Sequence record: PV654517
Direction: 5' to 3' (one strand)
DNA length: 64,000 nt
Source: Escherichia phage vB_ECOLIGBLB0003
Shown: positions 12,706 through 13,350 of the stretch, one piece after another
Layout: the number at the start of each line of letters is the position of its first letter
Numbering within the stretch: position 1 is the stretch's first letter
Program-made: the position numbers and the translations under genes
The notes under the pieces: model-generated
The model's database searches: none
Seen by the model: the letters and a program-made list of their open reading frames with translations, nothing else
What the model was told of the DNA's origin: nothing

Positions 12706-12713
12706 TTGATTAT

Positions 12714-12727
12714 GGGGCTTCGGCCCC
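12714..12727 (+). terminator. Hairpin GGGGCTTCGGCCCC downstream of gene 18
   Basis: 5-bp GC stem with tetraloop 9 nt after the gp18 stop. Confidence 0.5.
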
Positions 12728-12792
12728 TATTCTCGAGGAAACAAGTGATTATTTCTAAGTTTGTTACAATAAAACCAAGAAATCATTCAAAA

Positions 12793-13350
12793 ATGTGGTC
12801 GACAATTCTGGGATATAAAGTATCATATCATGATACAGTATCTGTTCCAATAGAATTAATGCCAAAGAATAGTAATAAAATAGTTGACGCTAAATGTGAT
12901 TTGTGTGGTACTAAATTTAGTAGAAGCATTCAACTTTTAAATAGAACACCCACACATGCATGTAGAAAATGTAGCATTAAACAAGTTGCTATTAAAAATT
13001 CGGAAGTTCAATCTGGAATAAGCAGACCATGGCAAAGAGGTGATAAACATCCTCGATGGACTGGCAAAAGAAAAGAGTTTGCATTATATGCTAGTAGAGT
13101 TCATTCTATAACTAAGTCAGCTAAAATAAGAAAAATCTGGTCAAAATGGCCGAATGCTGATAAAATAGGAATGTGCGGCGTAGAAGGTGCTTATCAACTC
13201 GATCATAAAGTATCTATCAAATATGGATTTGATAATTTAATTCCGCCGGAAATTATAGCAAGTGTAAAAAATTTAGAAATAATCACTTGGGAATCTAACC
13301 GAGAAAAGTCAAAAAGAAATAGCGTAGATCTTTGGGATTTACTAGAATGA
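12793..13350 (+). CDS. HNH-family endonuclease (free-standing homing-endonuclease-like ORF) inserted between genes 18 and 19
   Basis: C-terminal HNH-like motif QLDHKVSIKYGFDN...NLEIITWESNREKSKRN and upstream Cys pairs CDLCGT...CRKCS; start set at ATG 12793 because the frame upstream runs through the gp18 terminator hairpin; the true start is uncertain. Confidence 0.6.
   Translation: MWSTILGYKVSYHDTVSVPIELMPKNSNKIVDAKCDLCGTKFSRSIQLLNRTPTHACRKCSIKQVAIKNSEVQSGISRPWQRGDKHPRWTGKRKEFALYASRVHSITKSAKIRKIWSKWPNADKIGMCGVEGAYQLDHKVSIKYGFDNLIPPEIIASVKNLEIITWESNREKSKRNSVDLWDLLE

Follow-up and report, generated by a model that had tools for sequence, protein, structure and literature searches.

A probable homing endonuclease gene of the ORF19.1 type between the tail sheath and tail tube genes of a T4-like Escherichia phage

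The 64,000 nucleotides of Escherichia phage vB_ECOLIGBLB0003 (sequence record PV654517) that were analysed here, which we call the window, contain an open reading frame (ORF) at 12706-13350 on the plus strand, located between gene 18 for the tail sheath (10726-12705) and gene 19 for the tail tube (13458-13949). We think, with a probability of roughly 0.7, that this insert is a free-standing homing endonuclease gene of the type represented by "ORF19.1" of phage T6, the cleavage, the target and the homing being deduced from sequence comparison. As would be expected of such a gene, it is present in some genomes and absent from others at a precise intergenic site between two conserved genes, and it lacks transposon ends. 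This polymorphism, together with the discordance between ORF alleles and flanks, the fixed site and the purifying selection acting on the ORF, points to a homing endonuclease family, and simple vertical inheritance would not readily produce such a combination. ORF19.1 is deposited in GenBank without a function, nearly all GenBank records of the gene read "hypothetical", and searches of the literature for ORF19.1 retrieved nothing; it is probably one more T-even homing endonuclease that is concealed behind such annotations.

The region belongs to a T4-like (Tequatrovirus) genome that shares 98-99% identity with many T-even phages of Escherichia and Shigella, including T6, and the genes follow each other in the order gene 17 (8862-10694), gene 18, the ORF, gene 19 and gene 20. 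Alignment with T4 reveals a clean indel, in which the T4 octamer TACGGTGC, situated between the gene 18 stop codon and ATTCTAAAGGCC, is replaced by 644 bp (12706-13349) on the plus strand of the window, while no difference from T4 exists between 13350 and the start of gene 19. The initial annotation, which was made from the window alone and proposed a T4 comparison as a check, was therefore right to regard the ORF that separates genes 18 and 19 as a real insertion. The borders of the insert are exact and identical for the two alleles of the gene, T6-type and RB3-type. A comparison of its ends detected neither a target-site duplication nor terminal inverted repeats, and ends of the transposon type, which were also looked for, were not found. 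To the right of the insert, the plus strand contains the hairpin of the 18-19 spacer (GGCCTGTTTCGGCAGGCC, 13358-13375) and two TATAAATA late-promoter motifs ahead of gene 19 (13377-13384 and 13436-13443). As the hairpin and both motifs are identical in T4, they are native features of the spacer and were not brought in by the insert. It had been suggested that they insulate gene 19 from the insertion; the features are indeed in place, but they pre-exist in T4, and the insert merely lies upstream of them. On the left side, the gene 18 mRNA would receive a replacement hairpin at its 3' end from the insert. Since the insert is confined to the interval between the gene 18 stop codon and gene 19's own hairpin and late promoters, and since it provides this replacement, only a small cost to the phage is expected. 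The 18-19 junction is a tolerated and naturally used insertion site, which could be of use for phage engineering.

The distribution of the gene was surveyed in approximately 501 Tequatrovirus-level records of the 18-19 junction, of which 69 contain the T6-type allele that is also found in the window and 48 the RB3-type allele, and about 77% are empty like T4. Empty sites thus form the majority, and the ORF is not a constant feature of close relatives. The junction also appears empty in 152 more distant Mosigvirus-type records, in which, among the matches listed, it was spanned by a single piece of approximately 600 bp and no ORF was matched. The two alleles share their borders, their leader and near-identical first codons, and they are 84% identical at the amino acid level in residues 126-201 (numbered here and below from the GTG at 12745), but only 28-36% in residues 11-125, which comprise the recognition domain. 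Over its full length the ORF product of the window is 53% identical to that of RB3, whereas gp18 and gp19 of the same two phages are 99% and 100% identical, respectively. The nearest alleles in other genera are those of KMB17 (Karamvirus), with 63% identity to the window allele, and of Citrobacter phage Ursula, with 68% identity to the RB3 allele, so that each allele is closer to one of another genus than to its counterpart at the same junction. The history of the ORF hence disagrees with that of its flanks, as horizontal spread would predict.

Two explanations that do without homing have to be weighed at this point. According to the first, the ORF would be a resident accessory gene of the tail module that was ancestrally located behind gene 18, is inherited vertically with repeated loss and offers the phage some benefit, such as the exclusion of competitors or the processing of DNA. 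The constant position of the gene speaks for it, as all zinc-ribbon-type relatives whose context was examined are located directly 3' of gene 18 (17 of 17), including those of Dhakavirus and of phages infecting Acinetobacter, Aeromonas (AS-zj), Shewanella and Sinorhizobium (phiM12). Such a fixed position among phages so far apart may also stem from ancient vertical descent combined with repeated loss, and it weighs against a homing endonuclease. The purifying selection on the ORF and the loose linkage of flank haplotypes to its presence would also be compatible with a resident gene. However, vertical inheritance accounts poorly for alleles that have diverged this far between nearly identical neighbors, for the occurrence of three states (two alleles and the empty site) with identical borders inside one genus, and for domain partners that are typical of homing enzymes, and we consider the resident gene unlikely. 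According to the second explanation, the ORF would be a passive cassette that is shuffled by homologous recombination through the conserved flanks, the leader and the ORF's 3' end, the nuclease being uninvolved and perhaps inactive. The identical borders agree with this, and so does the structure of the alleles, since a leader, first codons and last ~75 codons that are near-identical around a strongly diverged middle indicate that recombination occurs inside the ORF. Yet an inert cassette would be expected to decay, whereas this ORF is undamaged and subject to purifying selection, its ratio of non-synonymous to synonymous substitution rates (dN/dS) being approximately 0.04-0.1, and 137 sequences show invariant or almost invariant catalytic residues. 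We therefore regard the passive cassette as somewhat less probable still than the resident gene.

Relatives with other N-terminal domains occupy other junctions, namely that between genes 19 and 20 and a site near a gp47-like gene. One T4-like phage from a metagenome (L029; JGI Ga0556681_000295) has a SegE-type GIY-YIG gene at the 18-19 junction (2565-3374) and, between genes 19 and 20, P0097 (4001-4630), which belongs to the ORF19.1 nuclease family; several endonuclease families are thus present at tail-gene junctions, and these junctions therefore act as landing sites. A second HNH homing-endonuclease gene that is unrelated to ORF19.1 (PHROG 10820/314) lies between genes 19 and 20 in Bp7 (3769-4350 of the examined locus L006) and KMB17 (3746-4327 of locus L005), both of which also have an ORF19.1 homologue, and just downstream the portal gene of Bp7 is annotated as two pieces. 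Profiles of the ORF19.1 family did not detect a paralogue among the ORFs of the window. With one junction kept from coliphages to rhizobiophages, and with two alleles that have swapped recognition domains within one genus, the family could serve as a system for studying how homing enzymes choose, keep and change their targets in essential structural genes.

If the gene is indeed a homing endonuclease gene, its product would nick or cut the genome with the empty junction during a mixed infection, either at the junction itself or within or close to gene 18's conserved 3' end, and recombinational repair from the ORF-bearing genome would carry a copy of the ORF and flanking sequence of varying length over to the empty site. 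The last ~30 codons of gene 18 (PARSINYIxLNFVATATGADFDEL) are conserved as protein from coliphages to the Sinorhizobium phage, and within them a block of mostly synonymous polymorphism is found 45-95 nt upstream of the insert (12612-12661, plus strand), where 14 mismatches to T4 occur in 50 nt against a background of approximately 1.5 per 50. Nucleotide diversity in a set of 19 genomes is highest, at 0.165, in a block 40-80 nt upstream of the insert and does not exceed 0.068 elsewhere; it is as low as ~0.003 across the first 120 nt downstream, and the first ~200 nt past the insert are almost invariant. The changes in the upstream block are almost all synonymous and affect the codons for PARSINYIxLNFVAT, the best-conserved peptide of gp18, kept even in phiM12. 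This pattern fits co-conversion tracts or variation of the target site, and the block is a candidate for either, although the target might just as well extend across the junction interrupted by the insert. What weighs against the homing interpretation here is that haplotype and ORF are only loosely linked: IME340, e112, PEC04 and RB51 have empty sites on haplotypes other than that of T4, and sb3 contains an ORF on the T4 haplotype. A strict tie between the gene 18 haplotype and the presence of the ORF, which was considered, is excluded by these exceptions in both directions.

The ORF19.1 protein very probably consists of a divergent HNH-type nuclease domain joined to a zinc-ribbon recognition domain, as judged from conserved motifs and a structural model, from which its activity is predicted as well. 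The N-terminal domain contains a Cys4 zinc-ribbon core (C51, C54, C73 and C76; 12895-12972, plus strand), which is weakly similar to the DUF4379 treble-clef finger and is presumed to be the DNA-recognition module. The C-terminal domain (13033-13347, plus strand) would be an HNH-like nuclease of the beta-beta-alpha-metal type, in a variant in which the three motif positions read H-N-N: D153-H154 (13201-13206), N176 (13270-13272) and N185 (13297-13299). Both the HNH-like motif DHKVSIKYGFDN...NLEIITWESNREKSKRN and the upstream Cys pairs (C51/C54 and C73/C76) had already been noticed in the initial annotation, and they are present. In an alignment of 43 homologues, C51, C54 and C73 are invariant and C76 is nearly so, and further conserved motifs are G-x2-HPRW, D153-H154, G161, N176-L177, W182 and N185-R186-x-K188. 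D153-H154 is invariant in these homologues as well as in 137 relatives, among which N176 and N185 are each at least 90% conserved. The usual HNH consensus is DH-x5-GG...NL-x7-N-x2-K, and the spacings of ORF19.1 agree with it (seven residues from His to Gly, nine from Asn to Asn and three from Asn to Lys). The AlphaFold models are confident, with scores (predicted local distance difference test, pLDDT) of 89 for the full protein and 92 for the C-terminal domain. In these models, D153-H154 close the strand 150-154, N176-L177 precede the strand 177-181, and N185 is part of the helix 182-188 and is followed by K188. Three features of the HNH superfamily, namely an acidic residue with a catalytic His, the spaced pair of Asn residues and the beta-beta-alpha fold, are thus found. 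A Foldseek search with the model of the domain alone yielded approximately 31 HNH or beta-beta-alpha-metal nucleases among 34 PDB matches, including the HNH domain of Cas9, Gme HNH, ScoMcrA and Vvn, none of these matches being individually significant.

Several results stand against this assignment. Searches of Pfam, NCBIfam and PDB sequences with the protein and with family alignments gave nothing at threshold, and in Pfam and NCBIfam the protein had no HNH match even at E-values up to 10; moreover, the metal-site position is occupied by Asn in place of His, and the CxxC pairs that usually surround the motif are missing. The only weak match in Pfam was the DUF4379 treble-clef zinc finger (E 0.015), and searches of PDB sequences yielded zinc fingers only. 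The designation as an HNH endonuclease thus did not pass the hidden Markov model profile search that had been suggested as a check, but the motif spacing, the conservation, the fold searches and the relatives speak for it. In Pfam, HNH_4 is matched below threshold by 9 of the 137 relatives (best E 1.8e-4) and HNH by 7 of 137 (best E 5.5e-4), and where these matches were mapped they coincide with the D-H...N...N motif. The C-terminal region of the homologue from Acinetobacter phage Tonic matches PHROG families annotated as HNH endonuclease and endonuclease VII. ORF19.1 itself and its homologues are members of PHROG 5104, a family annotated as of unknown function, which the protein matches at full length (residues 14-213 of the 214-residue form read from TTG 12706; E 9.8e-82). 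In none of the searches did the protein fall into a non-nuclease family. With a profile built from the C-terminal domain, 2492 clusters were matched in 1.84 billion representatives. The domain is fused to NUMOD3 in 17 of the 137 relatives (best E 3e-15) and to a helix-turn-helix or to zinc ribbons/DUF4379 in others, and some members of the family consist of the nuclease domain alone (106-114 residues). Such an exchange of NUMOD3, helix-turn-helix and zinc-ribbon partners is a modular architecture typical of homing enzymes. The large HNH-like clade thus outlined is unnamed in the curated libraries, and annotation pipelines could pick it up.

It follows from the failure of the HNH profiles, from the Asn at the last motif position and from the missing CxxC pairs that a DNA- or RNA-binding regulator with an HNH-like fold and no nuclease activity has to be considered. 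This is rather improbable, since D-H, N and N are conserved at the canonical spacing and the fold matches almost exclusively nucleases; furthermore, H-N-N variants are active in other HNH enzymes. The location of an HNH-type protein only one gene away from gene 17 for the large terminase could also suggest an accessory factor of the DNA-packaging machine, comparable to HK97 gp74, which assists the terminase. A required partner of the terminase would, however, be universal, whereas ORF19.1 is absent from T4 and the large majority of its close relatives, and gp17, the terminase of the T4 type, has a nuclease of its own and packages DNA by a headful mechanism. We regard such a packaging role as very improbable, clearly more so than that of a regulator.

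The expression of a homing endonuclease gene at this site depends first of all on its start codon. The initial annotation left the start ambiguous between TTG 12706, ATG 12712 and ATG 12793; all three are in frame, but a likelier candidate, GTG 12745, was not listed. GTG 12745 is the best-supported start on comparative grounds, because a Shine-Dalgarno sequence GAGG (12734-12737, plus strand) lies 7 nt upstream of it and because the N-termini of homologues (M/V-I-I-S-K) begin exactly there; the depositors' annotation uses it as well. The coding sequence would accordingly extend on the plus strand from 12745 to the TGA stop codon at 13350 and encode 201 residues. The hairpin that was seen after gene 18 in the initial annotation is present (GGGGC-UUCG-GCCCC in the transcript, 12714-12727, plus strand); it belongs to the insert and is located directly 3' of the gene 18 stop codon and upstream of the ribosome-binding site. 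An equivalent hairpin was found directly 3' of gene 18 in all eight occupied loci examined, and in five of these eight the start codon is GTG or TTG. It was considered whether this local hairpin masks the ribosome-binding site, but this was rejected, as GAGG stays mostly accessible in a 121-nt fold, the stability of which does not exceed that of shuffled sequences (z -0.45). In the 39-nt leader between the gene 18 stop codon and the start codon, a scan detected no promoter-like site on the plus strand and no terminator-like site either, and a promoter of its own was rejected, TTGATT-16 nt-TATTCT agreeing at only 8 of 12 positions. As the leader has neither type of site, ORF19.1 is probably transcribed by read-through of late gene 18 transcripts, which is the simplest route. 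In the window, the reading frame of gene 18 continues open into the ORF directly behind the single TAA stop codon of gene 18 (12703-12745). A read-through fusion with gp18 is nevertheless unlikely to matter, because the leader of RB3 is 1 nt shorter and the frame relation is therefore not conserved.

The translation of ORF19.1 may be restrained by a second, much larger RNA structure that covers the start region. An inverted-repeat search and folding identified two complementary arms of 27 nt on the plus strand that can form 25 Watson-Crick pairs and are 494 nt apart. The 5' arm (12742-12768) consists of the GTG start together with the 3 nt of spacer before it and codons 2-8 after it, and the 3' arm (13263-13289), which lies approximately 520 nt downstream, comprises the codons V174-W182, including N176-L177 of the HNH motif. 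When a 691-nt transcript was folded, the helix was part of the minimum-energy structure, and 20 consecutive pairs reached probabilities of 0.98 or more. In ten lineages, this pairing is also the most favorable one for the start region across the entire ORF (-24 to -38 kcal/mol), namely in the T6-type and RB3-type alleles, KMB17, Ursula and the loci L037, L117, L118, L120, L121 and L125, the proteins of which are 44-69% identical to that of the window. The helix is weak in L122 and L124 and absent in L119 and most of the distant members that start with ATG or TTG. Two compensatory changes were found: in L120, A-U is changed to U-A by a leader base and a synonymous third position, and in Ursula and Thanatos-2, U-A is changed to C-G by ATT>ATC together with GAA>GAG; L118 contains a U-G wobble. 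In an alignment of 16 sequences, against which a structure derived from one of these same sequences was tested, 80.7% of the cells pair compared to 35-45% in slid registers, five pairs show changes on both sides (reached in 11 of 500 shuffles) and the covariation score is 0.099 (reached in 9 of 500 shuffles). Randomisation of synonymous codons resulted in a mean of -15.4 kcal/mol (standard deviation 5.0) in comparison to the observed -31.4 kcal/mol, which was reached in 5 of 5000 cases.

These figures have to be balanced against the protein-coding role of the two arms. Both encode conserved peptides, and part of the complementarity therefore stems from the protein sequence; the amino acid sequence alone already accounts for approximately 13.5 of the 17 core pairs, and the covariation is modest. 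A different case is L123 (ENA ERZ27239235 k119_59058, ORF 601-1236), a homologue that starts with ATG and in which the canonical partner is degenerate. There, a perfect complement of 21 nt (21 of 21; -33.2 kcal/mol) to the Shine-Dalgarno sequence, the spacer, the ATG and two codons is located approximately 495 nt downstream at a different coding site (codons D-N-H-I-V-P-E), which gives the impression that start masking arose convergently. We read these observations as selection for a masked start region, one consequence of which may be the GTG start, as it would pair with the C-A-C of Ile-Thr codons. Translation would then be held low by the GTG start and by a long-range helix of 20-27 bp, and ribosome loading could be largely limited to the time until transcription reaches the distal arm. 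We give about even odds to the wider proposal that the mRNA of the enterobacterial branch is a self-closing switch, in which a helix of 17-27 bp limits translation to a short co-transcriptional interval or to an opening held by ribosomes and has fixed both the GTG start and the "NLEIITW" strand of the HNH motif, L123 achieving the same masking with another partner; long-range control of this kind has not been described for phage homing endonucleases. If real, the helix would add a new way of rationing a toxic enzyme, and it would be an RNA structure that shapes the start codon as well as the sequence of an active-site strand.

The window contains two further candidates for homing enzymes, both on the minus strand. 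A full-length "intron-like DNA endonuclease" of 269 residues (51985-52794; PHROG 12324, E 2e-193) is flanked by ORFs at 52937-53614 and 51347-51880 with matches to the N- and C-terminal portions of the small subunit of ribonucleotide reductase, and it has the appearance of an intact nrdB intron endonuclease of the I-TevIII type. In the position of mobE, a homing endonuclease of 213 residues (53611-54252; PHROG 655, E 8e-67) is encoded directly downstream of a 754-residue ORF (54252-56516), presumably nrdA as judged by length and position, and upstream of the split small-subunit gene. Two observations concern the records themselves. The only record that is 100% identical over the region, GenBank PV654520, is labelled "Pseudomonas phage vB_PSGBLB0006" with P. 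aeruginosa as host and a length of 142 kb, and another near-identical record is likewise labelled a Pseudomonas phage; as the T-even relatives from Escherichia and Shigella measure 165-170 kb, both the host given for PV654520 and its completeness seem questionable. The start of gene 20 is TTG 14021 in the mechanical ORF list, and the T4 gene 20 start corresponds by position to ATG 14033.

Among the known systems, the MobA-E enzymes of T-even phages and the I-HmuI type share with ORF19.1 a small intergenic gene that is patchily distributed among close relatives and an HNH motif combined with a separate DNA-binding module. The order of the domains is reversed, however, as I-HmuI-type enzymes have an N-terminal nuclease and C-terminal DNA-binding modules, whereas the nuclease of ORF19.1 is C-terminal (residues 150-188 of 201). 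Unlike in these enzymes, the DNA-binding module of ORF19.1 is a Cys4 zinc ribbon, and no HNH profile reaches threshold; profiles of the ORF19.1 family gave no detectable sequence match to the gene in the mobE position of the window. The best structural matches to the ORF19.1 model are the Gme HNH and GVE2 HNH nicking endonucleases (PDB 4h9d and 5h0o). The life cycle proposed here is that of the Seg-type GIY-YIG enzymes SegF and SegG, which differ in their catalytic family, and a SegE-like gene occupies the very same 18-19 junction in the metagenomic phage mentioned above. In this "intronless homing", the empty allele is cut, often at a distance inside the neighboring conserved gene, and is then repaired with co-conversion of the flanks (PMC2988022).

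ORF19.1 also shares with the homing endonucleases of T4 an mRNA structure that is proposed to restrain translation. Hairpins sequester the ribosome-binding sites of I-TevI, I-TevII, I-TevIII, segB and mobE and are bypassed by late promoters, and in seg43(25) a hairpin is located just upstream of the ribosome-binding site (PMC2988022). The stable local hairpin of ORF19.1 resembles that of seg43(25) in that it precedes the ribosome-binding site and does not cover it. In Acinetobacter phage Tonic, the hairpin behind gene 18 (2450-2500 of locus L011) holds a TATAAATA late-promoter motif in its stem and loop, an arrangement similar to that of I-TevI, the late transcripts of which start inside the inhibitory hairpin. 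Between the arms of the long-range ORF19.1 helix, no late promoter was seen that could bypass it. In contrast to the local hairpins of T4, the masking partner of ORF19.1 would be far away within the coding sequence of the catalytic motif, and it would cover the start codon and the early codons but not the Shine-Dalgarno sequence, except in L123, where the latter is included. ORF19.1 would thus be an element of a kind that is familiar in T-even phages; its family, unnamed in the curated libraries, is unusually faithful to one junction, and the probable long-range helix by which its mRNA masks itself would be new.

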